The notes under the pieces were generated by a model. The model was not told the origin of the DNA and searched no databases. It saw only the letters and a list, made by a program, of their open reading frames with translations. 41,850 bases of DNA from NCBI GenBank assembly GCA_964353675.1, contig CAYGXH010000001.1:1-41850 (forward strand). Reading direction: 5' to 3'. Below are positions 3,446 to 41,850 of this stretch, piece after piece (the stretch's first letter is position 1; each line of letters starts with the position of its first letter). The position numbers and the translations under genes were made by a program. This DNA comes from an uncultured Chlorobiaceae bacterium (GTDB lineage Bacteria > Bacteroidota > Ignavibacteria > UBA10030 > SZUA-254).

Positions 3446-4196
3446 TTCGATCCAGATACTCTTTTTTTAGGTGTTTCGTTAATTCCGATTTCAGTTCGAT
3501 CAATCCTTCTACTGCAAGTTCAGCCATTTTAGTCGCACCGTACTCTGAAAAATGTGTATTATCTTCCTTGCCTTCGGGTAATGTTTTGTAAATACCCGGT
3601 TTTACCCATAAAAATATTAACTTCGAATTCTCGGGTCCCAGCTTTGTGACGAGTTGTTCGCTCTTCCTGTGCATATCAACCAACGGAATGTTATAAGCGG
3701 CGGCAACTTCACGGACGATCTGAGGATATACTCCATGTTCATCATAGAACTTACCATCCTTATCGAATCGTCGGCGGACGATTGGTGTGCAGAGAATCGG
3801 ACGTCCTTTTTTCTCCAGAGTCTCGGTAACAAACTTGATCAGATTATTACGATAATCTTCCGGAGGAGTATAGCGTTCAATTTTTTCTTTCTTCTCATCA
3901 TTATGTCCGAACTGAATAAAAACATAATCGCCCTGTTTTATATTTTCCACGATCGGCCGCCATCTGTTCTCGCGGAGGAAGGATCTCGTACTCCGCCCGT
4001 TTTGTGCATGGTTTTCGATCGCAACAGTCGAATCAAAGAAGCGGGGAAATACCTGTCCCCAGCCCCGTTCCGGATTATCATCGGTCGGTTTATCTGCCAT
4101 CGTAGAATCACCAATCATGTAAATCGTACACTGCGGTCCGGAGACCTGAAAAGCACCGCACAGAATAAGAGCAAGTATGAGAAACGTTTTTATCAT
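3435..4196 (-). CDS. SGNH/GDSL hydrolase, rhamnogalacturonan acetylesterase-like (CE12)
   Basis: Signal peptide, then SGNH blocks: IYMIGDSTMADK (block I), NGRSTRSF (II), IQFGHND (III), DNTHFSEYGA (V). Size and layout match RhgT-type CE12 esterases. Confidence 0.8.
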   Translation of the reverse strand: MIKTFLILALILCGAFQVSGPQCTIYMIGDSTMADKPTDDNPERGWGQVFPRFFDSTVAIENHAQNGRSTRSFLRENRWRPIVENIKQGDYVFIQFGHNDEKKEKIERYTPPEDYRNNLIKFVTETLEKKGRPILCTPIVRRRFDKDGKFYDEHGVYPQIVREVAAAYNIPLVDMHRKSEQLVTKLGPENSKLIFLWVKPGIYKTLPEGKEDNTHFSEYGATKMAELAVEGLIELKSELTKHLKKEYLDRNDK

Positions 4197-4237
4197 GATT
4201 CAATAAATTGGATGTTGTCTTTATTTTTGAGCACTAT

Positions 4238-5815
4238 TCAATGACGTGAAAATGGATCCAGATGTTTTTTAAAATGCCTGATGAGTGTCTGGTAATGAAG
4301 CTCCTCATTTTCGATCAGGCAATTCATGAAGCGCTCGCGGAACAGAAATTTTCCCTCTTCGTTTCGTTCAGTCAGGACTTTCCCGAATGTTACATGAAAT
4401 ACCTGACGCGCATCATGATCCTCGAACAGCGATAATAACTTCTCGTCTGAGCAATCCTTGCCCGCGGGTACGCGATTAATCTGCGCGGTTACATGATAGG
4501 ATTTGCGCTGATCCTCATATTGTTCCCTGGAATAATCCAACATCTCCCTGAGGAGCGGAGGATTAACCTTTGCTATAGTGCGCAGCGCTTCAAGGTAACT
4601 CGTTCCGGCAGTTTTCACATGAACGTTCCCCTGATGAAGCGATCCGATTACCTTATACACGCTGAATTTATCGCTCCCCGAATGAATGCTTATCTTATAT
4701 GGTCCAACAATCTGAGAAATAGCGGCGTGCTGTTTGTATTCAGCTTCGAATGCGGAAAGATTGCCCTTGTAATCAACTCCTTTTTCAAAATCACCGATAA
4801 AGCGTGGCGCCAAACTGACAATCTTGACACCCATTCTCTTGAGCTCATTCGCAACGAAATAATGTTCGAATGGTGTTGTGGGAATATCTGTCTCGTCAAC
4901 GGATAATTCCACTTCTGACGGCAGAGAGGCGTACCGATCTGTGAGGTGACGGTACATTTTCCTTGCATGTTCTATTACTGCGCCGTACTTCAGGAAAGCA
5001 CGTGCAACAGCTTCAGCGTCCGGTGTCAGCGCAACGTCTGCATTGAGCCTGATGGTTTTGGAGACGTACCGGGAATTCACATCATCGAGTTTGAGTCCGC
5101 CCGTATCGAGCTGTTTTGCCCTTTGGACGACATCCCCAATCGGAAGCGAAACGGCTTCATTGACGACGTGCACGCTCGGATCAAATGTATACATAGTAAA
5201 TCCGACTTTCGCGTATCGGTCGATGTCCTCGGTAGTCTTTAGGTGATCGGCATCCGCTCCAAATCCTTTGGTATATCCTTCCTGCAGCACTGCCCACGTT
5301 GCTGCATCGAGAACTTCCTCAGCTGTGCGCTGTGTCCGTTCGAGTTCACGGACAGATTGCTGAGCCAGAACAGGTCTCATGTGCGAACCGGCAAGAGACT
5401 GTATGTGAGCCGGGTTCGCGATGCCAAGCCTGTCGCCGAAACCAAATGAATCAGCGGTGCCTACCACGACCGGTCGTGTGAAGGGAAATAATTCGCGTAT
5501 CTTTTCCGCATTCCGGTGATCCAGAGGACACTGCTCCGCGTGGATGCCGTTACCAAATACATCCGGAGATACATTCTCTCCGTTGAACGTGATTTTATCC
5601 TTACTGTTGTCTGTTCTCCTCGCGATATAAAGATATTTACCGCTTTTATGACGACCGATGAAAAACAACGTATCCCCGAGCATCATCATCGATAATTTAT
5701 AGATACTGATCGTTTGTCCGTTGGATCCGTAGATTATAGTATGGGGATCATGTTTCTTCGATCCTTTCAGGAGCATTTCCTTAAGCTGCATTTGAGCCAT
5801 ATTAGAACCTTTCAT
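4238..5815 (-). CDS. uxaE: Tagaturonate/fructuronate epimerase (UxaE family)
   Basis: SFGFGDRLGIANPAH, LAQQSVRELERTQRT and GFGADADHLKT blocks are characteristic of the UxaE TIM-barrel epimerase family described for the Thermotoga hexuronate route. It lies immediately downstream of uxaC. Confidence 0.75.
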   Translation of the reverse strand: MKGSNMAQMQLKEMLLKGSKKHDPHTIIYGSNGQTISIYKLSMMMLGDTLFFIGRHKSGKYLYIARRTDNSKDKITFNGENVSPDVFGNGIHAEQCPLDHRNAEKIRELFPFTRPVVVGTADSFGFGDRLGIANPAHIQSLAGSHMRPVLAQQSVRELERTQRTAEEVLDAATWAVLQEGYTKGFGADADHLKTTEDIDRYAKVGFTMYTFDPSVHVVNEAVSLPIGDVVQRAKQLDTGGLKLDDVNSRYVSKTIRLNADVALTPDAEAVARAFLKYGAVIEHARKMYRHLTDRYASLPSEVELSVDETDIPTTPFEHYFVANELKRMGVKIVSLAPRFIGDFEKGVDYKGNLSAFEAEYKQHAAISQIVGPYKISIHSGSDKFSVYKVIGSLHQGNVHVKTAGTSYLEALRTIAKVNPPLLREMLDYSREQYEDQRKSYHVTAQINRVPAGKDCSDEKLLSLFEDHDARQVFHVTFGKVLTERNEEGKFLFRERFMNCLIENEELHYQTLIRHFKKHLDPFSRH

Positions 5816-5845: not shown

Positions 5846-7285
5846 TTAAAAAAAATCAAAATATCGTCTTGCATTATTGTAGCAAATATCGTTTACCATA
5901 TTACCTACGAGATCAATATCGTCCGGTATCAGACCCATTTTCATTTCCCTCCCGAGAATTTCACACAGAATTCGTCTGAAATACTCATGCCTCGGATAGG
6001 AGAGAAAACTGCGGGAGTCTGTCAGCATTCCGACGAACTGACTTAACAAGCCCATATTTGACAGCGCATTGAGCTGGCGCTCTATGCCGTCTTTCTGATC
6101 CAGGAACCACCACGCACTTCCATACTGAATCTTACCCGGGATTTTACTATCCTGAAAGTTTCCGATAAGTGACGCGATAATTTCATTGTCAGCCGGATTG
6201 AGATTGTATACAGTTGTCTTTGCGAGCGAATTCCTGTCGTCGAGTCTGGCAAGGAGCCGCGCCAGCGGTTGGGCGATCGCATAGTCACCAATTGAATCAT
6301 AGCCGGTATCGGGACCGAGTTCGCGGTACATCCTCGGATTCGTATTCCTCATCGCTCCGAGGTGGAACTGCTGGACCCAGCCAGCCCGGTGGTCCATCAG
6401 ACACAATTCCAGAAGCACAGCAGATTTAAACTTAGCGCATGAAACCGGATCGATAGGCTTACCGGTTAATCCGTCGGAGAATATTTTACCAATTTCACTT
6501 TCATTGAATTCCTCTACGTACACAGTTTCGAGTCCGTGGTCCGACAGACGACATCCCTGTGAGTGAAAGAATGCATGTCTTTTACGCAGGGCTTCGAGAA
6601 AATCCTTATACGACGTTATCTGGATATCGGAAGCGGCGCTGAGCTTTTCAACGTATGTCTTGAACGCCGCGCCGCGTTCGACATTCATCGCCATATCAGC
6701 CCTGAAAGCTGGCAGGACCCGCACAGGAAATGTTTTGTCTTTCTTTAAGTGCAGGTGATACTCCAGCGAATCGATCGGATCGTCGGTTGTGCAAACGACA
6801 TCCACATTAAATTGTTTGATAATTCCGCGTGTAGAAAAATCACTCTCAGCCAACTTCGCATTGCACCGTTCCCAAACCTGTTTTGCCGTTTTTTCATTAA
6901 GGAGAACATCCGAAATACCGAAGGGGCGTTTCAGTTCCAAGTGTGTCCAGTGGTAGAGAGGATTGCGCAGTGTCTTCGGAACGGTCTGCGCCCATGCTTG
7001 AAATTTTTCCCAATCGGAAGCATCACCAGTTATATACTTTTCCGGAACACCGAACGTCCGCATTGCCCGCCATTTGTAATGATCGCCGGCCAGCCATATC
7101 TGCGTCATGTTTGCAAAACGCCTGTCTTCGGCAATCTCCTTAGGAGGTACATGACAGTGATAGTCGATGATGTGCTGGTTTTTCGCAAACCGATGGTACA
7201 GCTCGACTGCTCTGTCGTTTGTAAGAAGAAAATTTTCTGTTATGAATACATCTGCCATAATCTGCTCCGCATTAAATTTAATCAA
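5846..7285 (-). CDS. uxaC: Glucuronate/galacturonate isomerase
   Basis: FITENFLLTNDRAVELYH, IIDYHCHVPPKEI, GDHYKWRAMR and QFHLGAMRN give full-length similarity to UxaC. The track start is TTG 7285. ATG 7258 (MADVFITENF) is more plausible. Confidence 0.95.
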   Translation of the reverse strand: MIKFNAEQIMADVFITENFLLTNDRAVELYHRFAKNQHIIDYHCHVPPKEIAEDRRFANMTQIWLAGDHYKWRAMRTFGVPEKYITGDASDWEKFQAWAQTVPKTLRNPLYHWTHLELKRPFGISDVLLNEKTAKQVWERCNAKLAESDFSTRGIIKQFNVDVVCTTDDPIDSLEYHLHLKKDKTFPVRVLPAFRADMAMNVERGAAFKTYVEKLSAASDIQITSYKDFLEALRKRHAFFHSQGCRLSDHGLETVYVEEFNESEIGKIFSDGLTGKPIDPVSCAKFKSAVLLELCLMDHRAGWVQQFHLGAMRNTNPRMYRELGPDTGYDSIGDYAIAQPLARLLARLDDRNSLAKTTVYNLNPADNEIIASLIGNFQDSKIPGKIQYGSAWWFLDQKDGIERQLNALSNMGLLSQFVGMLTDSRSFLSYPRHEYFRRILCEILGREMKMGLIPDDIDLVGNMVNDICYNNARRYFDFF

Positions 7286-8367
7286 CGCTTTATCCTTGCT
7301 GAACCGCCGCTCATTACATGTTTAATTTCTTCGAGAGTCACCATACTTGTATCACCGCGTGTACTCTGCAGAAGAGCGCCGTGCGCCGCTCCCATGTCAA
7401 CACACTCCTGAGGTGACATTCCGTGCAATAATCCGTATATAAGTCCGCTGCAGAAGCCGTCGCCGCCTCCGACACGATCTTCTACTTCCAAACCAGGGTA
7501 TTTTTTAGATTCGAAAAATTGCCCGTCGCAGTACAGGATCGCCGACCAATTATTCACCAATCCGCTGACCACTTCTCTCAGTGTTGTCCCGACTACCTGA
7601 ATATGCGGATAGGCGGATACAACTTTTTTCACCATTTTTTTATATGCCTCGACCGGAAGCGACTTCAGAGATTCATCCGTCCCTTCAACGGTAAATCCCA
7701 AAACTTTCTGGAAATCCTCTTCGTTGCCGATGAGAACATCGATAAATGGTATGAGTTTCTTTGTTGCTTCAATCGCTTTGGCGCTCGACCAGAGTTTGCT
7801 TCTGAAATTGAGATCGTAACTCACCGTTGCACCGTTTTCATGGGCGGCCTTCATGGATTCGTACGCGACATCAGCGCATGGCTCGCTTAGAGCGGTAAAT
7901 ATGCCCCCTGTATGAAACCACCTGACTTTTCGTTCGCTGAAAATTCTCTTCCACTGAACATCACCCGCTTTCATGTGTGAAACAGCAGTATGACCACGGT
8001 CGTATAGGCTTAGACTAGGACGGACGCCAATGCCAACCTCGGTAAAATTCAATCCGATTCGATCGGCCCGGCCTGATCCATCGTACGGCACCCAGATGAC
8101 TTCGCTGAGGTCCATTCCCGCTGTCCGCGCGTGGTTTCTAATAAACGCCCCAAGCGGATTATCCACCAGACGGGAAATCCATCCCGCACGCATCCCATAG
8201 CGTGCCAGTGCATAGGATACATTGTATTCCCCGCCGCCCGCATAGACTTCAAAGTAGGGTGAAAGCTCAATCCGCTGATGTCCAGGCGGACTGAACCGTA
8301 TCATGCATTCTCCGAGGGAGAGAATATCCAGGCCTTTTTCCGCCGCCTCTTTTATTTTCATTGTCAT
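7282..8367 (-). CDS. kdgK: PfkB-family sugar-acid kinase, 2-dehydro-3-deoxygluconokinase-like (copy 1)
   Basis: Ribokinase-like fold motifs: LSLGECMIRFSP, GGGEYNVSYALARYG, and the C-terminal DRVGGGDGFCSGLIYGLL (GxGD catalytic/anion-hole motif). It ends GGSARIKR. Confidence 0.75.
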   Translation of the reverse strand: MTMKIKEAAEKGLDILSLGECMIRFSPPGHQRIELSPYFEVYAGGGEYNVSYALARYGMRAGWISRLVDNPLGAFIRNHARTAGMDLSEVIWVPYDGSGRADRIGLNFTEVGIGVRPSLSLYDRGHTAVSHMKAGDVQWKRIFSERKVRWFHTGGIFTALSEPCADVAYESMKAAHENGATVSYDLNFRSKLWSSAKAIEATKKLIPFIDVLIGNEEDFQKVLGFTVEGTDESLKSLPVEAYKKMVKKVVSAYPHIQVVGTTLREVVSGLVNNWSAILYCDGQFFESKKYPGLEVEDRVGGGDGFCSGLIYGLLHGMSPQECVDMGAAHGALLQSTRGDTSMVTLEEIKHVMSGGSARIKR

Positions 8368-8410
8368 ATATTAATTCTTTCTTATGTAAAAATTTCTATC
8401 ATTCCTGACA

Positions 8411-9493
8411 TCAGCGCTGGATACGTGCTGAGCCGCCTTTGGCGAATGCCCGTACCTGTTCGACTGTTGCCATCGTTGTATCTCCGGGATATGTCGTTAC
8501 CATCGCCCCATGTGCCCAGCCGAGTCTGACAGCTTCCTCAGGCGTCTCTCCATTCAGCAATCCGAAGATGAAGCCGCTGGCAAATCCATCACCCCCGCCG
8601 ACCCGGTCCAGAACATCTAACTCGCACGTAGGCGCAGAATAGGTCTTGCCGGTTATCCAGGCAACGGCGCTCCAGCTGTGGTGATTTGTAGAGTGAACTT
8701 CCCTGAGTGTTGTAGCGACAATCTTTACCTGCGGATGTTTCTGGACAACTTTATCGATCATCTGTAAGAAGACAGACGGATCGAGTTTCGATTTAGCGGC
8801 AACCTCCGGTCCGGGTATTCCCAATCCTTTCTGTAGATCTTCTTCATTGCCAACCAATACATCCACATTCTCAACTATCCGATTGATGATTTCTCCTGCC
8901 TTCTTTTCACCGCCCCAGATACTCCAGAGCTTTTCTCGGAAGTTAAGGTCGAAGCTAACTATCGCACCCGCTGATTTTGCCGCCTTCATCGCCTCGATGA
9001 TCAATTCCCCGGTTGTAGCCGACAGGGAAGCAAATATACCACCGCTGTGAAACCATCGCACTCCGCCGGTGAAGATTGCTTTCCAGTCGAAATCTCCGGG
9101 TTTCAGCAATGCACCAGCTTCATTCGACCGGTTGTAGAACACAACGGGCGGGCGAACGCCGTAGCCGCGATCGCTATAGACCGTTGCCATATTGGGACCA
9201 TTTACCCCGTTATGTTTGAAGTGTTTATAAAACGGTTTGACACCCATAGCCCGTACCCGTTCGGCTATCAGATCACCAATGGGATAATCGACCATTGCCG
9301 TAGCAATGGCAGTATTCATGCGGAAACAGTCGGCAAGGTTCGCGGCAACATTGTACTCACCGCCGCTCACATGAATATGGCATTCAGTCGCCTTCCTGAA
9401 TGGATAGATCCCCGGATCGAGGCGATGTACAAGAGCGCCAAGACTCAACAGGTCGATAGCGCCGGTTTTGGGAATCTTTAATTCATTACTCAT
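8411..9493 (-). CDS. PfkB-family sugar-acid kinase, KdgK-like paralogue (copy 2), substrate uncertain
   Basis: Same architecture as copy 1 (LSLGALVHRLDP, SGGEYNVAANLA, DRVGGGDGFASGFIFGLL, ends GGSARIQR), but clearly diverged across the substrate-lid region. Confidence 0.7.
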   Translation of the reverse strand: MSNELKIPKTGAIDLLSLGALVHRLDPGIYPFRKATECHIHVSGGEYNVAANLADCFRMNTAIATAMVDYPIGDLIAERVRAMGVKPFYKHFKHNGVNGPNMATVYSDRGYGVRPPVVFYNRSNEAGALLKPGDFDWKAIFTGGVRWFHSGGIFASLSATTGELIIEAMKAAKSAGAIVSFDLNFREKLWSIWGGEKKAGEIINRIVENVDVLVGNEEDLQKGLGIPGPEVAAKSKLDPSVFLQMIDKVVQKHPQVKIVATTLREVHSTNHHSWSAVAWITGKTYSAPTCELDVLDRVGGGDGFASGFIFGLLNGETPEEAVRLGWAHGAMVTTYPGDTTMATVEQVRAFAKGGSARIQR

Positions 9494-9523
9494 AAATTTT
9501 ACCTCAGTTCTTTTTTCCTTATT

Positions 9524-10795
9524 TCATTTGTTTATTTCACCAAAGGGATCATCATTCAGGCGATGGAGTATTTCTCCGGCTTTAGGGATATACAGGATGC
9601 CTTGCTTCTCTTGATTTTTCCATTCCTCCGGATTGATGCTCAACGGATCCCTGTAGCCGAGATTAATATGTTCACACATCTTTTCTGAAATACCGGTTGC
9701 CAGCACAACATTGATACGCGGCGATTCAACTCCGTCGGCGTAACTGCCAATTCCCTTCACGTGAGTCGAATGCGCAACAACACCTTTCGGAATATTTTTA
9801 AAAATATCCATCTGCTTTACGAAGTAATCACGGACGTGATATCCAATCCGCTCTATTATTGATCCGTGCGTCACGGAAATTTCTCTGATATGTGGTGCGT
9901 AGATAATTAACTCACCGCCGTCTGCGACTACAGGCTCAAGTTTATAAGCGCATTTCCCGCCTGTCCAGAGTTCATCGTACATACGAGGTGCACATGAGAG
10001 CACATTCGTAAAAGGGCGTTCCATGTACACAATGTGAATCTGATTGGAGAGATCCGCAGCGGCGGACCACGCCTCCTCAGGCGTACCGCAGTATAAACCT
10101 GCGAGATCGCTTCCGGTTACGACAAGACTCATGCAGAAGCGCTGTATCGTAACGAGTGCTGCAGCCGCATCGACTACCTCCCGCACAGGCGTCCACTTTT
10201 TGCCGATGATGCGCGGATTGGTGATCAACGCACCAAGCCAGTGAAACATATCGATGATTTCCTGCCCTGAAATTCCCGGAAACAGATATTTGTTTCCGCC
10301 AGAAAAACCTACCACTTCGTGCGGGAATGTGGGACCGATAATGAGAATAACATCATACTCGAACACAAGCTTGTTGATCGTAACATTCACCGGTTCTTTC
10401 ATCATGCCGCCGGATATTTCATCGATACGCGAAGCGCTGATAGCCCCGATCGAATGCAGATTGTTTTTATCTTTCCAGTTATGATTAAAAATCCGAGTCT
10501 TCGGGTACTTAGTACTACGCTCTCCGGGCTTAAGTCCCAGCCGTTTATCGATAGCTTCATCCGTCATGGGCGGATGAGTACCGAGAGCGATCAGAAAGTC
10601 GATAGCACTGCCTTGAGGTATCAGCGTTTCATAGAGTACCCTGAACATTACATCGATCGGAGCAGTCCTAGTATTATCGGGGATTACGGCAATGATTCGC
10701 TTGCCTGTTAACCTCTCGCGTTCAACGAATTCCGAGCAGATCCGTCGAATCTCTTCTTCCCTTAATATGGAATTAATCGAACCGTTGCCGATCAA
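9524..10795 (-). CDS. LarA-family (DUF2088) nickel-pincer-nucleotide-dependent 2-hydroxyacid racemase/epimerase homologue
   Basis: Motifs: IPDNTRT (D40-x-T-R43), ALGTHPPM (H74), FPHEVVGFSGGNKYLFPG (H159, K169), IIDMFHWLGA (H185). The H-to-K spacing of 10 and the K-to-H spacing of 16 equal those of L. plantarum LarA H174/K184/H200. TTG start with GGAG 6 nt upstream. No in-frame ATG or GTG lies further upstream before a stop. Confidence 0.75.
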   Translation of the reverse strand: MIGNGSINSILREEEIRRICSEFVERERLTGKRIIAVIPDNTRTAPIDVMFRVLYETLIPQGSAIDFLIALGTHPPMTDEAIDKRLGLKPGERSTKYPKTRIFNHNWKDKNNLHSIGAISASRIDEISGGMMKEPVNVTINKLVFEYDVILIIGPTFPHEVVGFSGGNKYLFPGISGQEIIDMFHWLGALITNPRIIGKKWTPVREVVDAAAALVTIQRFCMSLVVTGSDLAGLYCGTPEEAWSAAADLSNQIHIVYMERPFTNVLSCAPRMYDELWTGGKCAYKLEPVVADGGELIIYAPHIREISVTHGSIIERIGYHVRDYFVKQMDIFKNIPKGVVAHSTHVKGIGSYADGVESPRINVVLATGISEKMCEHINLGYRDPLSINPEEWKNQEKQGILYIPKAGEILHRLNDDPFGEINK

Positions 10796-10833
10796 CGCGA
10801 GCTCCGTTGGATTATACAGTACATAAAAATCAT

Positions 10834-12000
10834 TTATAGGTTACTTTTTCCGTTCACTGAAAAACCAATATTTCCGAGACATTGAACCAGTTCGGTCTGA
10901 GATTTTGCAATTTCAATATCAGTTGCAGCAAATTCCCGTCGCGTGGGATATTCGGCGCGAAGCTTACTAAAGTACTTTTTTCGTTCTTCCGGATTCAAGT
11001 TTAAAACCTTACGCAGGTTTGCATCATCGCTTTCAATATTGTAGCACTTTCCGACTATTTCCCGGAGCACTTTTATGTTATCGTTTTCCGGATTCCGTAG
11101 ACGTATTTTCGGTACATCCGGCGGTGGTAACTTACCCTCACTGTTCCAGGTCTGATTGGCTTTAAGATATCGGCAAACCGCTTCGTAGATGCTAACCGCC
11201 CCGTTTGTTTTACCCTCGACTGAATAACCGGCGATATGCGGTGTTCCAATGTCAATCATCTGCAAAATATCCCCATTAATATCCGGTTCGTTCTCCCACA
11301 CATCAAGCACTGCCGTACGGAGGTGATGTATGCGGAGTGCGTTCAGGAGCGCTTCGGTTTTTACCACCAGTCCACGTGAAGTATTGATAAGAATCGAATG
11401 AGGTTTCATCGCAGCGATGCGTTTCTCATCGAATAAATAATGGGTAGCATCGATTCCTTCATGCGTCAGCGGAACATGCAATGTGATAATGTCCGCATCC
11501 ATCAGGTCATCGAGTGAAACGAAATGTGGGTCGCCGTCCATACGTTGAAGCGGGGGATCATTCTGCAGTACTCTCATTCCGAGCGCAGTCGCTTTTCGGA
11601 CAACCTTGCTCCCCACATTTCCTACGCCGACGACACCTAGCGTGGTATGTCGAAGGTCAAGTCCCGATCGTTGCGCCAGCACGAAGATTGCCGCAACAAT
11701 ATATTCAGCTACAGAATTTGAGTTGCAGCCGGGAGCGTACGCAAACCGTATTCCCTTTGAAGAGAGGTATTGGAGAGCAACGTGATCATACCCGCTCGTA
11801 GCAGTACCAATAAATCGCACCTTGCTGCCTTCCAGCAATTCTTTACCTATTTTCGTAACGGAGCGTACTATAAGGAAGTCCGCATCGTGGACGGTCTTCG
11901 GAGTGATTGCCTGGCCGTCGACGAGGCGCACTTGTGCTATGCCGCTGTACATCGACTCAACGAAAGGAATATTTGCATCTGCCACGATCAAAGTGTTCAT
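10834..12000 (-). CDS. pdxB: 4-phosphoerythronate dehydrogenase-type D-2-hydroxyacid dehydrogenase
   Basis: Colinear with E. coli PdxB along its length: LIVRSVTKIGKELLEGSKVRFIGTATSGYDHV, APGCNSNSVAEY, VVGVGNVGSKV, DVWENEP, IGTPHIAGYS. The PdxB-specific C-terminal dimerisation domain is also present (YNIESDDANLRKV, FSKLRAEYPTRREF). Confidence 0.8.
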   Translation of the reverse strand: MNTLIVADANIPFVESMYSGIAQVRLVDGQAITPKTVHDADFLIVRSVTKIGKELLEGSKVRFIGTATSGYDHVALQYLSSKGIRFAYAPGCNSNSVAEYIVAAIFVLAQRSGLDLRHTTLGVVGVGNVGSKVVRKATALGMRVLQNDPPLQRMDGDPHFVSLDDLMDADIITLHVPLTHEGIDATHYLFDEKRIAAMKPHSILINTSRGLVVKTEALLNALRIHHLRTAVLDVWENEPDINGDILQMIDIGTPHIAGYSVEGKTNGAVSIYEAVCRYLKANQTWNSEGKLPPPDVPKIRLRNPENDNIKVLREIVGKCYNIESDDANLRKVLNLNPEERKKYFSKLRAEYPTRREFAATDIEIAKSQTELVQCLGNIGFSVNGKSNL

Positions 12001-12006
12001 ATTAAC

Positions 12007-13467
12007 TTATGCAGTATAAACTGATGATGCAGTATCTCCGCCATGGCCCGTCCAATTTGTATGGAAAAATTTTCCGCGTGGAGTATCAATTCGTTCGTAT
12101 TGATGGGCACCGAAGTAATCCCGTTGCGCCTGCAGAAGGTTTGCGGGCAACCGGCCGCAGCGCAATCCGTCGTAGAACGCAAGCGCTGTGGCATGTGCCG
12201 GAATCCAGATTCCGTGAGTCATAGCAGTTGCAATAACCCGGCGCCATCCGTCCTGCGCTTGCTTCATTTTCTCCTGGAAAAACCGATCAAAGAGAAGGTT
12301 TGATAAATTTGGTTCACGTTCGAATGCTTCTTTGATCTTGCCTAGAAAAACCGATCTGATGATACAGCCGCCCCGCCAGAGAAGCGCGATCCCGCCAAAG
12401 TTCAATTTCCATCCATACTCTTTCGCTGCTTCCTGCATGAGCATATATCCCTGTGTATATGAGACGAGCTTGGAGGCGTACAGCGCTTTTTCGAGGTCAT
12501 TTATAAAAGTTACCCTATCAACTACCGGATGCATGGCCGGACCGGCCAGTTCTTTGGATGCTTTCACGCGTTCATCTTTCATTGCTGAAAGGCAGCGTGC
12601 CAAAACTGCTTCGCTGATGAGAGTGAGTGGTATACCCAGGTCAAATGCAGCCACACTTGCCCACTTGCCGGTACCTTTCTGGCCTGCGGTATCGAGTATT
12701 TTTTCTATCAGGGGTGTTCCGTCGGTGTCCTTATGTGCAAGAATATCCCGGGTGATCTCAATGAGGTAGCTGTTCAGATCACCCTCATTCCATTTCCTGA
12801 ATACCTCATGCATTTCATCCGCCGTCATTCCGAGGAGAACCTTCATCATGTGATATGACTCGGCGATCAGCTGCATATCCCCGTACTCAATACCATTGTG
12901 CACCATTTTTACAAAATGTCCGGCTCCGTCGCTTCCTACCCAATCACAGCACGGCGTCCCGTCGGCAACCTTAGCGGCAATCTTCTGGAAGATCGGTTTC
13001 ACATGCTCCCACGCCTGCGGTGAACCGCCCGGCATAATTGAAGGTCCCTTCAGAGCGCCTTCCTCGCCGCCTGATATTCCCGTCCCGATGAAGGAATATC
13101 CCTTACTTTCGAGGTATTTTACTCTACGAATTGTATCGGGGAAATGTGAATTGCCGCCATCAATCAGGATATCATTCGTCTGCAAAAACGGGAGAATCTT
13201 CTCTATTATATCATCGACGGCTTTGCCGGCAGGGACCATAAGCAGAATTCTGCGGGGTTTTTTCAGTGATTTGCAGAGCTCATTAACTGAACTCACAGTG
13301 ATGATACTTTTACCGGCTGCAGCTCCCGCCATGAACTTACCGGCTTTCGATAAATCGAGGTCAAATCCGGCAACGGAGAAACCTTTACTTGCCATGTTGA
13401 GGGCAAGGTTTTGTCCCATGACACCCAAACCTACAATTCCTATATCTGCATTATTCATTATCATCAT
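12007..13467 (-). CDS. gnd: 6-phosphogluconate dehydrogenase, decarboxylating
   Basis: IGIVGLGVMGQNLALNMASKGF (NADP Rossmann), GHFVKMVHNGIEYGDMQLIAE (6PGD signature), LLQAQRDYFGAHQYERID. The stop lies 6 nt before the pdxB start. Confidence 0.95.
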   Translation of the reverse strand: MMIMNNADIGIVGLGVMGQNLALNMASKGFSVAGFDLDLSKAGKFMAGAAAGKSIITVSSVNELCKSLKKPRRILLMVPAGKAVDDIIEKILPFLQTNDILIDGGNSHFPDTIRRVKYLESKGYSFIGTGISGGEEGALKGPSIMPGGSPQAWEHVKPIFQKIAAKVADGTPCCDWVGSDGAGHFVKMVHNGIEYGDMQLIAESYHMMKVLLGMTADEMHEVFRKWNEGDLNSYLIEITRDILAHKDTDGTPLIEKILDTAGQKGTGKWASVAAFDLGIPLTLISEAVLARCLSAMKDERVKASKELAGPAMHPVVDRVTFINDLEKALYASKLVSYTQGYMLMQEAAKEYGWKLNFGGIALLWRGGCIIRSVFLGKIKEAFEREPNLSNLLFDRFFQEKMKQAQDGWRRVIATAMTHGIWIPAHATALAFYDGLRCGRLPANLLQAQRDYFGAHQYERIDTPRGKFFHTNWTGHGGDTASSVYTA

Positions 13468-13488
13468 CCTTTTAAAAGAGCATACAAG

Positions 13489-14322
13489 TTACACACCGCT
13501 GTAAGCAGAAAATCCGCCGTCCACCGGTAAAATAATGCCTGTCACAAAAGACGACAGCGGTGACAGCAGCCAGAGTGTTGCACCAAACAGATCGGCCGGG
13601 TCGCCGAATTTACCCATGGGTGTGTGATCAAGAATTTTTTTACCACGCTCCGTCAGTTGTCCGGTGTCCTTATCGGTCAGTAGAAATCTGTTCTGTGCCG
13701 TAAGGAAAAATCCGGGAGCAATAGCATTCACGCGAATATTGGGTGAATACTCCTGCGCCATATGGACAGCCAGCCACTGTGTGAAGTTACTGACGCCTGC
13801 CTTTGCAGCCGAGTACGCTGCAATTCGTGTGAGCGGCCTGAATGAATTCATGGAGGAAATATTTACGATAGTTCCTTTCTTGCGCTCTGCCATGTGCCGC
13901 CCGACGATCTGCGAGGGAATGATAGTTCCCATAATATTCAGATCGAAAACAAATTTCATTGCTTCCGGAGGGAGATCAAAGAATGACGCAGTCGGATTAG
14001 TGGTTGCTTTCGGATTATTACCTCCCGCTCCGTTGATGAGCGCATCGATCTTCCCGAATTCTTTAAGAACCTCATCCATTGCTCTCTTCATCATTTCAGG
14101 CTGCAAGACATCACCGTTGACGACGATAGCTCTGCCAACTTTCGAATCGAACCTTTTCACAACCTGCTCTGCCATGGCAGGGTCGCGATCTATGATTGCC
14201 ACGTTTGCATTACAACCGGCGAGCAGACAGGCCATCTCGCCGCAGAGTACACCGCCACCCCCTGTGATAATGACCGTATAATCCGTGAAATCGTATGCTT
14301 TACTCACATCCGCGAGATTCAT
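13489..14322 (-). CDS. uxuB: SDR-type fructuronate reductase / D-mannonate oxidoreductase-like
   Basis: VIITGGGGVLCGEMA, INGAGGNNPKATT, NISSMNSFRPLTRIAAYSAAKAG, VNAIAPGFFLTAQNRFLL and PVDGGFSAYSG match the classical-SDR mannonate-reductase subgroup seen in Bacteroidota uxu loci (recalled, not searched). Confidence 0.65.
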   Translation of the reverse strand: MNLADVSKAYDFTDYTVIITGGGGVLCGEMACLLAGCNANVAIIDRDPAMAEQVVKRFDSKVGRAIVVNGDVLQPEMMKRAMDEVLKEFGKIDALINGAGGNNPKATTNPTASFFDLPPEAMKFVFDLNIMGTIIPSQIVGRHMAERKKGTIVNISSMNSFRPLTRIAAYSAAKAGVSNFTQWLAVHMAQEYSPNIRVNAIAPGFFLTAQNRFLLTDKDTGQLTERGKKILDHTPMGKFGDPADLFGATLWLLSPLSSFVTGIILPVDGGFSAYSGV

Positions 14323-14355
14323 AATATGATCCTTCTTTCGATAAAGTGATGTTTG

Positions 14356-15675
14356 TTACAATTCGAGTTTCACCGGTTCAATTTTTGGAACTAAGAGGTG
14401 AAAAATTCCGAGCGCCAACAAATATGCAGATCCTGAGATGATAAAGAGTATCATGTAGCTGCCCGTCAATTCCAGGATATACCCCGCTATTGTAGAGATG
14501 AGCATTCCTCCCACAGCGCCTGCCATTCCCCCGATCCCAACGATGGACCCGACGGCTTTCTTAGGAAACATATCAGATACGGTCGTGAATATATTTGCCG
14601 ACCATCCCTGGTGTGCAGCTGCTGCCAGGCCAATCAGTCCGACGGCAATCCACATATTTGATGCAAAACTTGCCGTTACGATCGGTACGATGCAGATTGC
14701 ACAAATCAGCATTACTAATTTCCGCGATCGGTTAATCGGCATTCCTCGTTTTATGAAGGCAGACGACAACCATCCGCCGCCGATGCTTCCGACCGTTGTC
14801 ATCATATAGATGACGATGAGCGGAAGACCTAATTGCGAGATATTCAAACCATAATTCGAATTAAGGAACTTCGGCAGCCAGTACAGATAGAACCACCAAA
14901 TAGGGTCGGTGAGGAATTTCCCAACCACGAACGCCCATGTTTGCCGGTAACCGAGCAAACGCTTCCATGGAATTTTTCCTACTTCTTGTTCCTCAGGATC
15001 AGAGAGAATGTGATCTAGTTCCGACTTACTGATTCGTTTGTGCAGTTCCGGTTTCTCATACAGAAGCCACCAAAAAATGACCCAAATAAAACCTATTGCC
15101 CCCGTTACAATGAATGCCATCTGCCACCCGTAGCTTATCGTCAGCCACGGGACGACAAGAGGTGCGAATACTGCGCCGATATTCGCACCAGAATTAAAAA
15201 TACCGGTTGCGAGAGCCCTTTCCTTCTTTGGGAACCACTCTGCGGTTGCCTTAATTGCCGCGGGGAAATTAGCCGACTCACCGATACCAAGCGCAAATCG
15301 GGCGGTAGCAAAACCAAAGGCCGTCTTCACCAGCGAATGTCCCATTGCAGCCAGACTCCAGACCACAATGGCTACCGTAAATCCAATTTTTGTTCCGTAC
15401 TTATCGATCAACCGTCCGGCAAACAACAAACCGATTGCATACGCGGCTTGAAAAGCGACAACTATGTAACCGTATTCGATTTCATTCCATCCGATCTCTT
15501 TTCCGAGTACCGGGGCAAGAATTCCGAGTATCTGCCGATCTATATAGTTCACTGTTGTTGCAAAGAAAAGCAACGCGCAAATACTCCAGCGAAGATTCCC
15601 GACCTTTTGTGTTACAGCTGTATTTTTATCGGAGTTCGTATATTGTTGTTCCTGTTGTGTCATAGATATTTTCAT
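14356..15675 (-). CDS. exuT: MFS hexuronate transporter (ExuT / ACS family)
   Basis: Hydrophobic 12-TM profile. NYIDRQILGILAPVLGKEIGW and the GRLIDKYGTK loop are typical of ExuT-like permeases. Its start is 1 nt after the stop of the upstream gene. Confidence 0.85.
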   Translation of the reverse strand: MKISMTQQEQQYTNSDKNTAVTQKVGNLRWSICALLFFATTVNYIDRQILGILAPVLGKEIGWNEIEYGYIVVAFQAAYAIGLLFAGRLIDKYGTKIGFTVAIVVWSLAAMGHSLVKTAFGFATARFALGIGESANFPAAIKATAEWFPKKERALATGIFNSGANIGAVFAPLVVPWLTISYGWQMAFIVTGAIGFIWVIFWWLLYEKPELHKRISKSELDHILSDPEEQEVGKIPWKRLLGYRQTWAFVVGKFLTDPIWWFYLYWLPKFLNSNYGLNISQLGLPLIVIYMMTTVGSIGGGWLSSAFIKRGMPINRSRKLVMLICAICIVPIVTASFASNMWIAVGLIGLAAAAHQGWSANIFTTVSDMFPKKAVGSIVGIGGMAGAVGGMLISTIAGYILELTGSYMILFIISGSAYLLALGIFHLLVPKIEPVKLEL

Positions 15676-15676
15676 A

Positions 15677-18181
15677 TTATTTAAGAATGATCAATTTCCG
15701 TGTTTGTGTGAAGTTACCTACGCTCAACCGGTAAAAGTACATTCCACTCTGTACACCCTCCGCATTCCAATGGACAGTGTACTCACCCGGCTGTTTTAGT
15801 TCATTCATCAGCGTAGCCACTTCCCTCCCCAGCATATCGAAAACTTTCAACGTCACAAATGATCCGCCAGAAAGCTGGCGGGCAGGCAAATGACCCGCCT
15901 GCGTTCCGGGTGTATACTGGCTAACTTCGGCGGGCAGGCCAATGACAAATGATATTTTAGTTGTCGGATTAAAAGGATTCGGGTAATTCTGATCAAGATA
16001 ATATGAAGAAACAGAATTCCCGACCATTGTCTCATCACTACCGGGCGGCGGCGGCGGAGTATCTGCGGGCATCTCTGTTCTGATCCGGTTTTGAGCCAAT
16101 ATCTTCCCTCCGCCGGATAAGATGAGTTTTCCGGTTTGAGGCGCTTTAACCCAATATCCCTTTCCCGGATACATTGTATCAGAACTTACGTAACTTCCGG
16201 TATAAGTAAGGAATCCGCTTGTGACCATACCGGGTGGATCACTGGTAATATTAAGGACAAAAATTGGGATGCTGAGGGCACCGATCATATTCCATCCTAC
16301 AGAAACATTTACTGTATCATTCAGATTTGGGGTGCCCCAGACCTTTATATTTTCTTCCTGTGAGAACCTTAGCCAGTATCCGATAGCACATTCGATGGTA
16401 TCTCTCTGAACATAGGTACCTTCAAACGTAAATGCTGCTGATTCAGACGTTGGGAACAGATTGATTTTCCTCGGATCTTCCGATACCGAAGGAAGGGAAA
16501 CCATATTCCATCCCTCATATACAGTAAATATTACACTGTCCTGTCCGAAATGTGCGGTTATATTCTTATCCGCATCCATCGTGACGGTTATCGGATTCTC
16601 CGATCCGCCGGCATCACCGCTCCAACCAATAAAGCTAAATCCGACATCGGGTATTGCCGTCAGTTGAACATTTGTACCATGTTCGAAGATAGTATCCTCG
16701 GGATCTTTTAATATGATCCCATTTTCGGCGCTGATCGTAAGTGTATAGGTATTGATGGAAAATGTTACGCGGATTGCATGATTTCCCTGAACATCGCTAA
16801 AAGTATAGAGTGAAACCTGACCTATGTAAACATCATCAACAATCACACTATCGACATGATAACCGGTATCCGGAGTGAAGTTGAAGGTAGTATCATTTCC
16901 CTGCGGCACTGTAATCATACCTGATGGTGTTATCTGACCGTGTATTCCGGCTGATGCCGTGATTGTATAGGAGAGAGGGTTCGTTCCGCTTTCTAACGCG
17001 CCCAAATCCGGTCCGATACCGTTGTACGGAAATCCGACGTCAGTACCGCTATTGATGAGATCGCTTCCCGTCGCCAACCGCAGAAAATCATTTGTCGAAA
17101 GGGTTCCGTCACTATTGCGGGGTGCATGTGCAAGTGAAGTATCAGTGCTAAGAAAATCATCGGCGGCTACGGTGAATCCCTGCCAACTGTTTGTGGTTTG
17201 AACAGCGCCCGTGTTTATCGAAATGTTACCCGACCCGGAGATGTTGTTGATCAGAGTATCCTGCCCAACGCCAGGTGTTTCCGCGAAGGCAAAGTTATTC
17301 CCTCCGTTTCGCCACGCTGTATTATTATAGAGAGTTACACCTGCAGTATTGTGGTTTTGATCAAATCCTTTGGATTTATTATCAAAAGCGATACTGTGAG
17401 TAACACGGTGGGCTGCAGGGATGTAATTACCGCCAACCTTTATACCATTGCCATCCCCCTGGAAAGAGAGGTCACCCCAAATATTATACCCATTGTGGAA
17501 TGCCCAGCAGCTGTCTATGAGTACTCCATTCTGTCCTTCATAGAGATCCCATCCATCGTCTGAATTGTTCCATGCCCGGCAGCCATGGAATTCATTTCCC
17601 GGTCCGATATCAAGCTTTGGTGCAAATCCATCGGCGTTCTCACCATGCGTTAATGAATCGTAATTATCATACGAATCACAATTAACCACTACATTGTAAC
17701 CGCCCCCTCCGCTTATTTGTAATCCCGTATCTTTGTTTTTATATAGTGTGCAGTTTACAACTATATTATAATCTCCGGTGATGTATATCCCGTTATCCCC
17801 TGCATATCGTATTGTTAGTCCCTGAATATGCCAATAGTCTCTTGATACATACAATCCCCGCGAGGATGAAGAATAAGATTGGAGGGCAAAGTCGAGAATT
17901 GGAGTTTCCCCAGGATAAGCCCAGAGTTTAATATGCTGACCGGAAAGACCGCTAATACCGGTTTGAATAGTAGTTGAAATATTATATATCCCGTCACGGA
18001 GATATATCAGATCCCCGGCAGACACAACGCTCATAGCTTTCTGGATTGTTCTATAAGGATGATCGATTGAACCATCACTCGAGTCACTACCCGTGGGGGA
18101 CACATAAATCTGAGTAAATGATAACGTTGAAAGGAGCATTAACAACAGGAGTATAAACGTAAATCTTTTTTTCATAACCAC
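15677..18181 (-). CDS. Secreted right-handed beta-helix polysaccharide lyase-like protein (PL9-like), T9SS cargo
   Basis: Signal peptide from ATG 18175 (MKKRFTFILLLLMLLSTLSF). N-terminal IYVSPTGSDSSDGSIDHPYRTIQKAMSVVSAGDLIYLRDGIYN. Core HGENADGFAPKLDIGPGNEFHGCRAWNNSDDGWDL...GDGNGIKVGGN resembles PL9 pectate lyases. Two Ig/InlB-B-like repeats follow, then the GWNM module, a PPPPP linker and the NYPNPFNPTT sorting domain. Confidence 0.6.
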   Translation of the reverse strand: MVMKKRFTFILLLLMLLSTLSFTQIYVSPTGSDSSDGSIDHPYRTIQKAMSVVSAGDLIYLRDGIYNISTTIQTGISGLSGQHIKLWAYPGETPILDFALQSYSSSSRGLYVSRDYWHIQGLTIRYAGDNGIYITGDYNIVVNCTLYKNKDTGLQISGGGGYNVVVNCDSYDNYDSLTHGENADGFAPKLDIGPGNEFHGCRAWNNSDDGWDLYEGQNGVLIDSCWAFHNGYNIWGDLSFQGDGNGIKVGGNYIPAAHRVTHSIAFDNKSKGFDQNHNTAGVTLYNNTAWRNGGNNFAFAETPGVGQDTLINNISGSGNISINTGAVQTTNSWQGFTVAADDFLSTDTSLAHAPRNSDGTLSTNDFLRLATGSDLINSGTDVGFPYNGIGPDLGALESGTNPLSYTITASAGIHGQITPSGMITVPQGNDTTFNFTPDTGYHVDSVIVDDVYIGQVSLYTFSDVQGNHAIRVTFSINTYTLTISAENGIILKDPEDTIFEHGTNVQLTAIPDVGFSFIGWSGDAGGSENPITVTMDADKNITAHFGQDSVIFTVYEGWNMVSLPSVSEDPRKINLFPTSESAAFTFEGTYVQRDTIECAIGYWLRFSQEENIKVWGTPNLNDTVNVSVGWNMIGALSIPIFVLNITSDPPGMVTSGFLTYTGSYVSSDTMYPGKGYWVKAPQTGKLILSGGGKILAQNRIRTEMPADTPPPPPGSDETMVGNSVSSYYLDQNYPNPFNPTTKISFVIGLPAEVSQYTPGTQAGHLPARQLSGGSFVTLKVFDMLGREVATLMNELKQPGEYTVHWNAEGVQSGMYFYRLSVGNFTQTRKLIILK
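15680..15988 (-). other. T9SS C-terminal sorting domain (type A) with an insertion of about 20 aa
   Basis: NYPNPFNPTTKISFVIGLP[AEVSQYTPGTQAGHLPARQLSGGS]FVTLKVFDMLGREV...GMYFYRLSVGNFTQTRKLIILK. Confidence 0.8.
15959..16513 (-). repeat. Diverged third copy of the GWNM...GYW(L/V)K two-fold module plus poly-Pro linker
   Basis: GWNMVSLPSV...AIGYWLRF...GWNMIGALS...GKGYWVKA...PPPPP. It aligns with the copies at 21665..22222 and 26437..26994. Confidence 0.7.
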
Positions 18182-21385: not shown

Positions 21386-21418
21386 TACTTCTCATTCTCT
21401 TTACTCATTACTCTTTGC

Positions 21419-26068: not shown

Positions 26069-26125
26069 TACCTATCTTTAAAATAAGGTTGCGATACTTG
26101 TTCCACAGGTGTCTTAGTGAATCTA

Positions 26126-26194
26126 CCACCCACCAAGGTGAACTATATCATGATAAACGTTCACCTCGGCAGGTGATTTTACCTAACGGTGGGC
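26126..26194 (-). promoter_or_regulatory. Structured intergenic element with nested, mutually exclusive inverted repeats
   Basis: Outer stem CCCACC (26129-34) / GGTGGG (26188-93). AGGTGAAC (26136-43) / GTTCACCT (26159-66) enclose the perfect palindrome TATCATGATA (26146-55). CACCT (26162-66) / AGGTG (26171-75) compete for the same arm. Confidence 0.4.
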
Positions 26195-26208
26195 ATTAAG
26201 TTATTTTT

Positions 26209-35808: not shown

Positions 35809-35823
35809 CTCTTTGCCCTTCGT

Positions 35824-41102: not shown

Positions 41103-41850
41103 CTACTTCAGGTATAACATCTTTCTTGTTTCCATTCCTCTGTCGGTCAATAGCCGTGAAACGTACAGACCCGAACTCAGATTTGCTGCATTAAAAGTAA
41201 CCCGGTGAATTCCCGCATCGACAATGTCGTTCATGAGCGTTGTAATATATGCTCCGGCGATAGAATATACTTCCAACTTCACCATGCTCCGATACGGTAC
41301 TTCAAACTCGATTTCCGTGACAGGATTAAACGGATTTGGGTAATTGGATCGTATACGGTAGTTTACAATCTCTGTCACATTAATTTCATCAACATGGGTC
41401 GGATATTGTGGAACGAGACTGTTCAAATAATGCTCCAGGTTGGAATATCCGTCTGGATTGATAAAAGCTCCATCTGATGTATCAGCCGGATTTAAACTGT
41501 GTAAAATTTCCCAATCATCCGGTATTCCATCGTGGTCAGTATCCGCAGGCGGTTCTGCCGAATTTAATACGTGCCACCCTCCGACGTCATTCTGGGAGTC
41601 GATGATACCCGAATTCGCGCCAGTTAGACCTCCATACAGCGCCGTATCATTCTTAACTTCCCACACAATTCGCAGATCGACAGAGTCGCGCTTCGGCAGT
41701 GATGCGCCGCCGTGTTCGAGGACGGAGATGTATGCTTCTTCAGGTGACTGCTGAGTGATAGGTGCGAATTGAAACGGCTCATTGACACGGATGGTATCCT
41801 TGACAGCTTGTGTTGGTCCCTGCACGCCGTACGTCCAGTTATCAGCGGTC
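41103..41850 (-). CDS. C-terminal part of a secreted pectate-lyase-like protein (5' end outside window), T9SS cargo
   Basis: The frame stays open to the window edge (…TADNWTYGVQGPTQAV…). The GTG at 41825 in the track is internal. RDSVDLRIVWEVKN, IIDSQNDVGGW and the calcium-binding-like DTDHDGIPDDWE...NPADTSD...GYSNLEHYLNSL tail are typical of Bacteroidota PL1 lyase C-termini. The NYPNPFNPVT sorting domain follows. Confidence 0.6.
   Translation of the reverse strand, partial: TADNWTYGVQGPTQAVKDTIRVNEPFQFAPITQQSPEEAYISVLEHGGASLPKRDSVDLRIVWEVKNDTALYGGLTGANSGIIDSQNDVGGWHVLNSAEPPADTDHDGIPDDWEILHSLNPADTSDGAFINPDGYSNLEHYLNSLVPQYPTHVDEINVTEIVNYRIRSNYPNPFNPVTEIEFEVPYRSMVKLEVYSIAGAYITTLMNDIVDAGIHRVTFNAANLSSGLYVSRLLTDRGMETRKMLYLK
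41106..41345 (-). other. T9SS C-terminal sorting domain (type A)
   Basis: NYPNPFNPVTEIEFEVPYRSMVKLEVYSIAGAYI...GLYVSRLLTDRGMETRKMLYLK. Confidence 0.85.

Follow-up and report, generated by a model that had tools for sequence, protein, structure and literature searches.

Two homologues (LarAH) of LarA, the nickel-pincer nucleotide (NPN)-dependent lactate racemase of Lactobacillus plantarum, are known as NPN-dependent D-gluconate 2-epimerases: GntE1 of Corynebacterium glutamicum (LarAH19) and GntE2 of Thermotoga maritima (TM0442, LarAH20; PDB ID: 4NAR), both of which epimerise D-mannonate to D-gluconate only with NPN (PMC7583248). Like GntE1 and GntE2, LarAH15 epimerises free mannonate in vitro. 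The GntE family was first predicted for the hexuronate pathway (Rodionova 2012, as cited in PMC6978723 and PMC3750489), and in T. maritima the route uxaE-uxaD-gntE-gntK-gnd is established, the pectin operon having the order aldH-pelB-gnd-uxaR-uxaE-uxaD-gntE-gntK (PMC3750489). GntE1 is the sole tested member of LarAH Group 19, and its study left the physiological role of that group in doubt (PMC7583248). Here we analyze a LarA homologue from an uncultured Chlorobiaceae bacterium, encoded at 9524..10795 on the minus strand of contig CAYGXH010000001.1 (assembly GCA_964353675.1), the whole of which (41,850 bp) was examined and is called the window below. The protein is probably an NPN-dependent hexonic-acid C2 epimerase of the GntE1 clade, acting on D-mannonate to give D-gluconate ahead of a kinase and of decarboxylating 6-phosphogluconate dehydrogenase (Gnd).

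Active site and clade of the LarA homologue

The features of the gene that bear on its assignment are the following; conservation refers to 83 homologues from as many non-redundant related loci.

9524..10795, minus: LarA-superfamily gene, assigned to LarAH Group 19 (GntE1 type) from the open reading frame (ORF) list, Pfam, PDB, the tree and the structural model
10802..10805, minus: GGAG, resembling a Shine-Dalgarno sequence and lying 6 nt upstream of the start codon TTG, by direct reading
10667..10678, minus: codons D40-N-T-R43 (LarA D72, catalytic Asp, and R75, cofactor-binding Arg); D and R invariant in 83/83
10574..10576, minus: codon H74 (LarA H108, acid/base His), from alignment, DNA check and conservation in the 83 homologues
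10289..10321, minus: codons H159-E160-V161...G-F-S-G-G-N-K169 (catalytic His; substrate loop with the 'EV' that marks the GntE branch; cofactor-tethering Lys), from alignment, DNA check and conservation
10241..10243, minus: codon H185 (LarA H200, Ni ligand), with W186, also invariant, directly after it, from alignment, DNA check and conservation
9953..9967, minus: codons W277-T-G-G-K281 (LarA Y294, Q295, V297, K298; alpha11 signature W.T.GK), from alignment, DNA check and conservation
9755..9784, minus: codons G338-V-V-A-H-S-T-H-V-K347 (alpha14 signature G V A S T H K), read against the Group 19 rows that the Desguin supplement gives, and from conservation

The ORF listing gives a single ORF of 423 aa with a TTG start. 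Upstream of the TTG, 15 in-frame codons precede a stop, none of them ATG, GTG or TTG, and a longer N-terminus would have no space because the upstream gene ends at 10834. An earlier note on this DNA had named this TTG, with GGAG upstream, as the only canonical start and had listed D40, R43, H74, H159, K169 and H185 as present; both statements hold, the first by direct inspection of the preceding codons and the second by MAFFT alignment with LarA and verification of the codons in the DNA. The LarA sequence was taken from the Desguin 2020 supplement (PMC7583248), which gives, group by group, the LarAH sequences and a signature of 20 residues. The six residues align with LarA D72, R75, H108, H174, K184 and H200, respectively, placing the H159/K169/H185 motif on the cofactor site, and K281, absent from the earlier list, aligns with LarA K298. 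A HMMER pairwise alignment that put H185 on LarA N199 through a one-residue gap was rejected, both the alignment with 2YJG and MAFFT giving H200. All seven cofactor and catalytic residues (D40, R43, H74, H159, K169, H185 and K281) are invariant in 83/83 homologues from many phyla, and Pfam Lar_N (PF09861) matches the protein at 80.6 bits (cutoff 23.3; E=1.2e-22; profile positions 52-194 of 204). At the level of sequence the gene is thus shown to be intact and its predicted active site complete.

Placement of the protein among the functionally assigned LarA clades puts it inside Group 19 and not in the clade of the lactate racemases. In a neighbor-joining tree with 300 bootstraps the GntE branch (Groups 18, 19 and 20) is recovered at 100%, Group 19 together with the window protein and the related loci at 94% (93% when the Planctomycete member is included), and Group 20 as a clade of its own at 97%. 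Identity to the window protein falls from 50-55% in the non-actinobacterial Group 19 members (Nostoc, Roseiflexus, Planctomyces, Truepera) to 43% in C. glutamicum GntE1, and then to 35% in T. maritima GntE2, 23-29% in Group 18 and 19% in LarA. Its signature (D R H H E V K H V W T G K, then G V A S T H K) agrees with the pattern tabulated for Group 19, the group-specific residues being E160, V161, V204, W277, T278, G280 and K281 followed by G338, V340, A341, S343, T344, H345 and K347; the substrate-loop signature 'EV/S' has been described (PMC7583248). The alpha14 part was read directly against Group 19 sequences, as the MAFFT alignment with LarA is unreliable there and its last seven signature columns conflict with the published table. 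For alpha14 of Group 19 the Desguin supplement has G L A S T H R/K; the window protein's V in place of L and its K in place of R are conservative and also present in listed Group 19 members. As judged by tree and signature, the window protein is a member of LarAH Group 19 (GntE1 type).

NCBIfam has no model that the protein reaches at cutoff, the best being that of Group 18 (NF052594; 188.3 bits, cutoff 500), and Group 18 membership was rejected on this score and on the 23-29% identity. Membership of Group 20 was rejected as well, the window protein having E-V, V at the I220 position and G-V-A-S-T-H-K, not E-S, A and N-A-A-V-I-N-R, and being 35% identical to GntE2. Assignment as a lactate racemase sensu stricto (NF033504, Ni_dep_LarA) was likewise rejected (68.2 bits, cutoff 460; E160 and V161 replace F175 and F176).

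The earlier note had also drawn attention to the spacing of the catalytic residues, and here its numbers stand and its emphasis does not. The distances H159 to K169 (10 residues) and K169 to H185 (16 residues) are those of LarA; the segment from H74 to H159 is 85 residues, compared with 66 in LarA (+19); and 32 fewer residues than in LarA precede the catalytic Asp (D40 vs D72). However, the 10/16 spacing is identical in 16/16 aligned sequences (Groups 1, 6, 18, 19 and 20 and the window protein) and, being common to every aligned group, is diagnostic of nothing narrower. The inter-His spacing is 85-86 in Group 19, 77 in Group 18, 79-81 in Group 20 and 63-66 in LarA and Mar2; Groups 18, 19 and 20 have 14-43 residues fewer than LarA ahead of the catalytic Asp; and the Group 19 protein of Nostoc (N. 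punctiforme) has D40/H74/H159 numbering identical to that of the window protein. The best 120 of at least 8000 database homologues are 412-441 aa in length. As the alignment indicates, the short N-terminus and the longer inter-His segment are traits of the Group 19 clade, not truncation.

Membership of the LarA superfamily is also seen in the structural comparison. PDB entry 4NAR (GntE2) is the top solved structure by sequence, with a full-length match (E=1.7e-63, residues 11-413 on 10-422). An AlphaFold2 model prepared from 57 homologues (pLDDT 87.3, pTM 0.86) is poorly defined only in the GGNK cofactor loop, with pLDDT <50 at residues 166-169, and recovers the predicted two-domain LarA fold: Foldseek matches it to 4NAR (TM 0.84, rmsd 2.8 Å) and to other LarA-family structures (TM 0.6-0.73), among them holo-LarA (5HUQ, TM 0.70). 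Together with the residues invariant in 83/83 homologues, this fold match supports the earlier view that the enzyme is probably catalytically competent.

The family is large, with at least 8000 proteins at E<=1e-10 in the database search and at least 594 matching stretches in species-representative genomes of many phyla. Public names for the homologues are 'nickel-dependent lactate racemase' (JGI, NCBI) or 'DUF2088'. Among the species-representative genome matches listed, the closest relative is 68% identical; the nearest named relatives among the matches listed (65-68% identity) are metagenome-assembled genomes (MAGs) of Bacteroidota, Calditrichota, KSB1 and Fidelibacterota.

Gene neighbourhood and the predicted hexuronate route

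The LarAH gene is the fifth of nine genes in a block whose minus-strand order, 5' to 3', is MFS, SDR, Gnd, PdxB-like, LarAH, PfkB_A, PfkB_B, UxaC, UxaE; the other eight are listed here.

14356..15675, minus: major facilitator superfamily (MFS) transporter of galactonate/hexuronate type (Pfam MFS_1; TIGR00893 261.5 bits, below cutoff)
13489..14322, minus: short-chain dehydrogenase/reductase (SDR) of the D-mannonate oxidoreductase subfamily, candidate fructuronate reductase (PRK08277 365 bits vs 281)
12007..13467, minus: Gnd, decarboxylating 6-phosphogluconate dehydrogenase (TIGR00873 736 bits vs 426.7)
10834..12000, minus: full-length PdxB-family gene, 4-phosphoerythronate dehydrogenase-like (Pfam 2-Hacid_dh and DUF3410; PRK00257 430.6 bits vs 434; PDB 3OET 5.7e-84)
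8411..9493, minus: PfkB_A kinase, candidate hexonate 6-kinase (gluconate or mannonate), resembling 2-keto-3-deoxygluconate (KDG) kinase (Pfam PfkB; PDB 2AFB KDG kinase 9.7e-46)
7282..8367, minus: PfkB_B kinase, 40% identical to PfkB_A and scoring above it on KDG-kinase models
5846..7285, minus: UxaC, uronate isomerase (Pfam UxaC 2.4e-209)
4238..5815, minus: UxaE, tagaturonate/fructuronate epimerase (Pfam UxaE 2.9e-168)

The intergenic gaps within the block are -4 to 43 nt, and a terminator scan gave no minus-strand match within any of them. Upstream lie pectate lyases, a pectinesterase, GH28 and GH88 enzymes and a LacI regulator, and all large genes between 41825 and 622 are on the minus strand. 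The earlier note had placed the enzyme in sugar-acid catabolism rather than lactate metabolism; its position in a pectin locus, between Gnd and the PdxB-like gene on one side and the PfkB pair, UxaC and UxaE on the other, together with the GntE1-clade membership of the protein, bears this out.

From the gene content of the block we infer a route in which the secreted lyases, esterase and GH28 enzyme encoded upstream would degrade pectin, the MFS transporter would take in galacturonate, and UxaC would convert it to tagaturonate, UxaE then giving fructuronate and the SDR reducing this to D-mannonate. The LarA homologue would then invert C2 of D-mannonate to give D-gluconate; by analogy with LarA, the chemistry would be proton-coupled, with a hydride passing transiently to the Ni-bound pyridinium cofactor on its K169 tether, H74 and H159 serving as the putative acid/base pair and H185 as the presumed Ni ligand. 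The adjacent PfkB kinase would convert D-gluconate to 6-phosphogluconate, and Gnd would convert this to ribulose-5-phosphate, the entry to the pentose phosphate pathway. Such a route would be redox neutral, since the SDR uses NAD(P)H and Gnd regenerates it.

The same association recurs in the 83 related loci, whose ORFs were scored by BLAST with the window proteins and by unbiased clustering; the counts that follow were made within 6 kb of LarAH, except for kinases, which were counted over whole loci (up to 10 kb), and are lower bounds because many loci are short contigs. A mannonate-oxidoreductase-like SDR is present in 52/83 loci and Gnd, the second commonest neighbour, in 29/83, followed by UxaE (18/83), a 295-aa HAD protein (14/83) and UxaC (13/83). 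The kinases beside LarAH belong to five families: PfkB_A (11 loci), PFK-like (11), FGGY (4), GntK P-loop (4) and PfkB_B-like (1). PfkB_A, at 68-86% identity in its 11 loci, is better conserved than LarAH itself; the P-loop kinases are of GntK/IdnK type (TIGR01313 179 bits, cutoff 113.75), and the best match of the four FGGY partners is gluconokinase. An orthologue 80% identical to the window protein has the same nine-gene order and the same LarAH length. This conserved order and the recurrence across the 83 loci define a core in which the reductase, the epimerase and Gnd are joined by a kinase that may come from any of the families. The PdxB-like gene occurs in 8/83 loci at 42-64% identity and always immediately upstream of LarAH; loci with it include L005, L026, L030, L039, L055, L057 and L001, and the labels of the MAGs concerned are Bacteroidetes, Elusimicrobia, Nitrospiraceae and Hydrogenedentes.

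The PFK-family kinase follows LarAH where PfkB_A is absent (L015, at 2445-3734 and 3781-4668, and L007, L013, L016, L027, L026, L030, L039, L057, L047 and L062), and matches the model for diphosphate-fructose-6-phosphate 1-phosphotransferase (PRK14072 362 bits vs 273). It is often followed by the 295-aa HAD-superfamily protein, which has a DSDG motif and no NCBIfam match. A PFK-type enzyme is unexpected in a sugar-acid operon; fructuronate may be its substrate, because fructuronate resembles fructose 6-phosphate.

Further observations concern the remainder of the window, which has a GC content of 47%. A Por_Secre_tail domain (type IX secretion sorting) ends the pectinolytic enzymes and several proteins with no recognised catalytic domain (15677-29031, 31588-33180 and 41103-41825, minus strand); among its carriers are a lyase resembling Pel9A and a pectate lyase of 1549 aa that also has CBM6 and Flg_new_2 repeats. 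These domains suggest that the organism belongs to the FCB group. At 33293-41044 (minus strand) four genes follow one another. The first encodes a CarboxypepD_reg protein of 999 aa, TonB-dependent receptor-like by a weak match to Plug, and the other three encode a 745-aa protein (sub-threshold CHU_C/Por_Secre_tail matches only), a PorV-like outer-membrane protein of 343 aa and a 495-aa protein (weak FadL-family match only). With no SusD-like partner detected, this locus resembles a polysaccharide utilization locus but is not of the classical SusC/SusD type. The sole sizeable plus-strand ORF free of minus-strand overlap (8-586, 192 aa) has no Pfam match. Rfam (gathering threshold) and tRNA scans of 1-41850 found nothing, and the empty Rfam scan indicates that the window holds no Ni/Co riboswitch.

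Substrate, order of steps and cofactor supply

The substrate of the enzyme, the order of kinase and epimerase and a cofactor made by genes elsewhere in the genome are what we infer here from these comparisons. The conversion of D-mannonate to D-gluconate is the most likely reaction: it is the published activity of GntE1, GntE2 and LarAH15, and gluconate is favoured as the product because bona fide gluconokinase-type partners occur in relatives. The pocket signature, moreover, shows no co-variation with the kinase family, the sole exception being K, not R, at position 347 in PfkB_A loci, and this constancy suggests a single substrate. Several points weigh against the conversion of D-mannonate to D-gluconate as the native reaction. 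The Km of GntE1 for D-mannonate is 120 mM, and its authors doubted mannonate as the native substrate (PMC7583248). GntE1, the only Group 19 enzyme to have been assayed, is just 43% identical to the window protein. The adjacent PfkB_A is a KDG-kinase-like PfkB and not a recognised gluconokinase, and the PdxB-like neighbour has no evident role in the hexuronate scheme, although it may act on a phosphorylated aldonate. Finally, Eda, KduI and UxuA are not found in the window; the lack of UxuA and Eda belongs among these points, and the window carries no marker of the branch served by PfkB_B.

The main alternative, although we consider it unlikely, is that the kinase acts first, PfkB_A phosphorylating D-mannonate and the LarA homologue epimerising 6-phospho-D-mannonate to 6-phosphogluconate. 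This order has been shown biochemically in extracts of Lactobacillus suebicus by Valk et al. (2020; PMC6978723), with genes left unidentified and an expressed gntE homologue noted; the later literature searched mentions neither 6-phosphomannonate nor mannonate kinase and so names no genes. It is consistent with the high Km that GntE1 shows on mannonate as the free acid, with an adjacent kinase that resembles KDG kinase rather than gluconokinase and a PFK-family partner in 11 loci, and with the recurrence beside the gene of an enzyme of the PdxB family, whose substrate is a phospho-aldonate; in addition, the Group 19 pocket has S-T-H-x-K/R where GntE2 has V-I-N-x-R and is more polar and basic. 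However, free mannonate serves GntE1, GntE2 and LarAH15 as an epimerisation substrate in vitro, a GntK/IdnK-type gluconokinase scoring above cutoff pairs with LarAH in four relatives and an FGGY kinase with gluconokinase as its best match in four more, the pocket residues are alike across kinase types, and a 2024 paper on LarAH proteins (PMC11770544) makes no mention of phosphorylated substrates. Were 6-phospho-D-mannonate nevertheless the substrate, the gene pair would supply genes for both the mannonate kinase of the L. suebicus route and its 6-phosphomannonate 2-epimerase, and the 120 mM Km of GntE1 would be explained.

Considerably less probable is an epimerisation that precedes reduction, in which D-fructuronate (5-dehydro-D-mannonate) would be interconverted with 5-dehydro-D-gluconate at C2 and the SDR would then serve as a gluconate 5-dehydrogenase yielding gluconate. 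The two keto-acids differ solely at C2, as is established chemistry, and gluconate 5-dehydrogenase is the third-best NCBIfam match of the SDR (171.9 bits); however, the SDR fails that model (171.9 vs 279) and passes the one for D-mannonate oxidoreductase (365 vs 281), and the published activity of the GntE branch is on mannonate and gluconate. More improbable still is an action on aldaric or uronic acids, such as the conversion of D-glucarate to D-mannarate, a role that Desguin et al. raised for GntE1 in view of its high Km and uronate-linked context (PMC7583248): the window contains no aldarate dehydratase or uronate dehydrogenase domain, and the second commonest neighbour (29/83 loci) is Gnd, which acts on 6-phosphogluconate.

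The earlier note had found no larB, larC or larE partner in the window and had proposed that the cofactor-synthesis genes lie elsewhere. The former statement stands: no LarB, LarC or LarE Pfam domain was detected in coding-strand ORFs of at least 120 aa in the window, and tblastn with verified LarE, LarB and LarC seeds from locus L036 gave nothing at E<=1e-3 in the window nor in the other loci. By motif scans and tblastn, larBCE are absent within 10 kb in 82/83 related loci. The one locus with cofactor genes in cis is L036 itself, from a Capsulimonadaceae MAG whose LarAH is 56% identical, where at 8238-16792 an FGGY kinase, LarAH, UxaC, SDR, LarE, LarB and LarC follow each other on the same strand (NCBIfam: LarE 324 bits vs 150; LarB 274 vs 175; LarC 209 and 149 vs 90 and 50). 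LarE and LarB adjoin 33% of Group 19 genes (Desguin Table S1, PMC7583248). With this figure and the 82/83 loci that contain no larBCE, it appears usual for the Group 19 clade that genes outside the LarAH locus provide the cofactor, and by comparison with these relatives it is plausible that larB, larC and larE elsewhere in the genome make the cofactor of this organism. The contrary reading, that the protein is a relic without cofactor or a non-NPN enzyme in an organism that has no larBCE, would accord with the absence of the three genes from 41.8 kb, but we regard it as very unlikely: the seven catalytic and cofactor residues are invariant in the 83 homologues of many phyla, the intact gene has an 80%-identical orthologue of equal length and context, one relative carries larEBC in cis, and trans-encoded larBCE are common in Group 19. 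That the protein is a lactate racemase, as the JGI and NCBI names of homologues and the Pfam Lar_N match would have it, is scarcely credible given an Ni_dep_LarA score of 68 bits against 460, 19% identity to LarA, a substrate loop with E-V instead of F-F, a polar alpha14 without Trp (W358 in LarA) and no lactate-metabolism genes nearby.

Comparison with known systems

A probable conversion of D-mannonate to D-gluconate, followed by phosphorylation and Gnd, would give the Group 19 clade the role that work on its tested member had left in doubt. What is new is that Group 19 outside Actinobacteria is tightly linked to Gnd and to a kinase, with the kinase slot filled by five families, and that a PdxB-family gene is a recurrent neighbour of LarAH. 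The linkage to Gnd and a hexonate kinase suggests that the Group 19 clade most likely feeds hexuronate carbon into the pentose phosphate pathway. Placement in the GntE1 clade also corrects the names 'lactate racemase' and 'DUF2088' for a family that has at least 594 matching stretches in the species-representative genomes. A redox-neutral route of this kind is of interest for pectin conversion, and distinguishing a free from a 6-phosphorylated substrate could assign genes to two orphan enzyme activities.

The closest described system is that of GntE1 (LarAH19) and Group 19 (PMC7583248), with which the window protein shares its clade, the 13 core signature residues, the 85-86 inter-His spacing and a uronate-linked context. 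Within the core signature it has G for A at the V297 position, as do the Planctomycete members. It is 43% identical to the tested GntE1 and 50-55% to untested Chloroflexi, cyanobacterial, Planctomycete and Deinococcus-Thermus (Truepera) members. Unlike what is tabulated for Group 19, its neighbours (Gnd, PfkB kinase, SDR) resemble those of Group 18 (PMC7583248); larE and larB do not adjoin it, and the N-terminal extension of ~15 residues seen in actinobacterial Group 19 members is absent. Group 18 itself (NF052594, 'nickel-dependent putative hexonate epimerase') has in common with the window protein the E-V loop, the alpha11 W and the context of SDR, Gnd and a ribokinase-family enzyme, but it has W-L/V-N-K instead of W-T-G-K and forms a sister clade.

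GntE2 (TM0442, 4NAR) resembles the window protein in its short N-terminus, its catalytic set and the pathway logic of uxaE, SDR reductase, epimerase, kinase and gnd, and the window block matches the logic of the T. maritima pectin operon (PMC3750489); it differs in its 35% identity, its Group 20 clade, its E-S loop, its alpha14 (N A A V I N R) and its FGGY kinase partner, where the window has PfkB. With L. plantarum LarA (5HUQ) the window protein shares the fold, equivalents of D72, R75, H108, H174, K184, H200 and K298, the 10/16 spacings and, presumably, NPN chemistry; in contrast, the identity is 19%, its pocket is polar where that of LarA is aromatic, and it is not part of a lar operon. The L. 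suebicus route of Valk et al. (2020; PMC6978723) has UxaC, UxaE and a fructuronate reductase leading to 6-phosphogluconate and Gnd, as proposed here, and is likewise redox neutral; there the kinase precedes the epimerase, with genes unidentified, whereas the gene content of the window fixes neither order. The window gene is a further member of the described GntE-type epimerases, in a pathway of the type already predicted for them, and represents no new kind of system.

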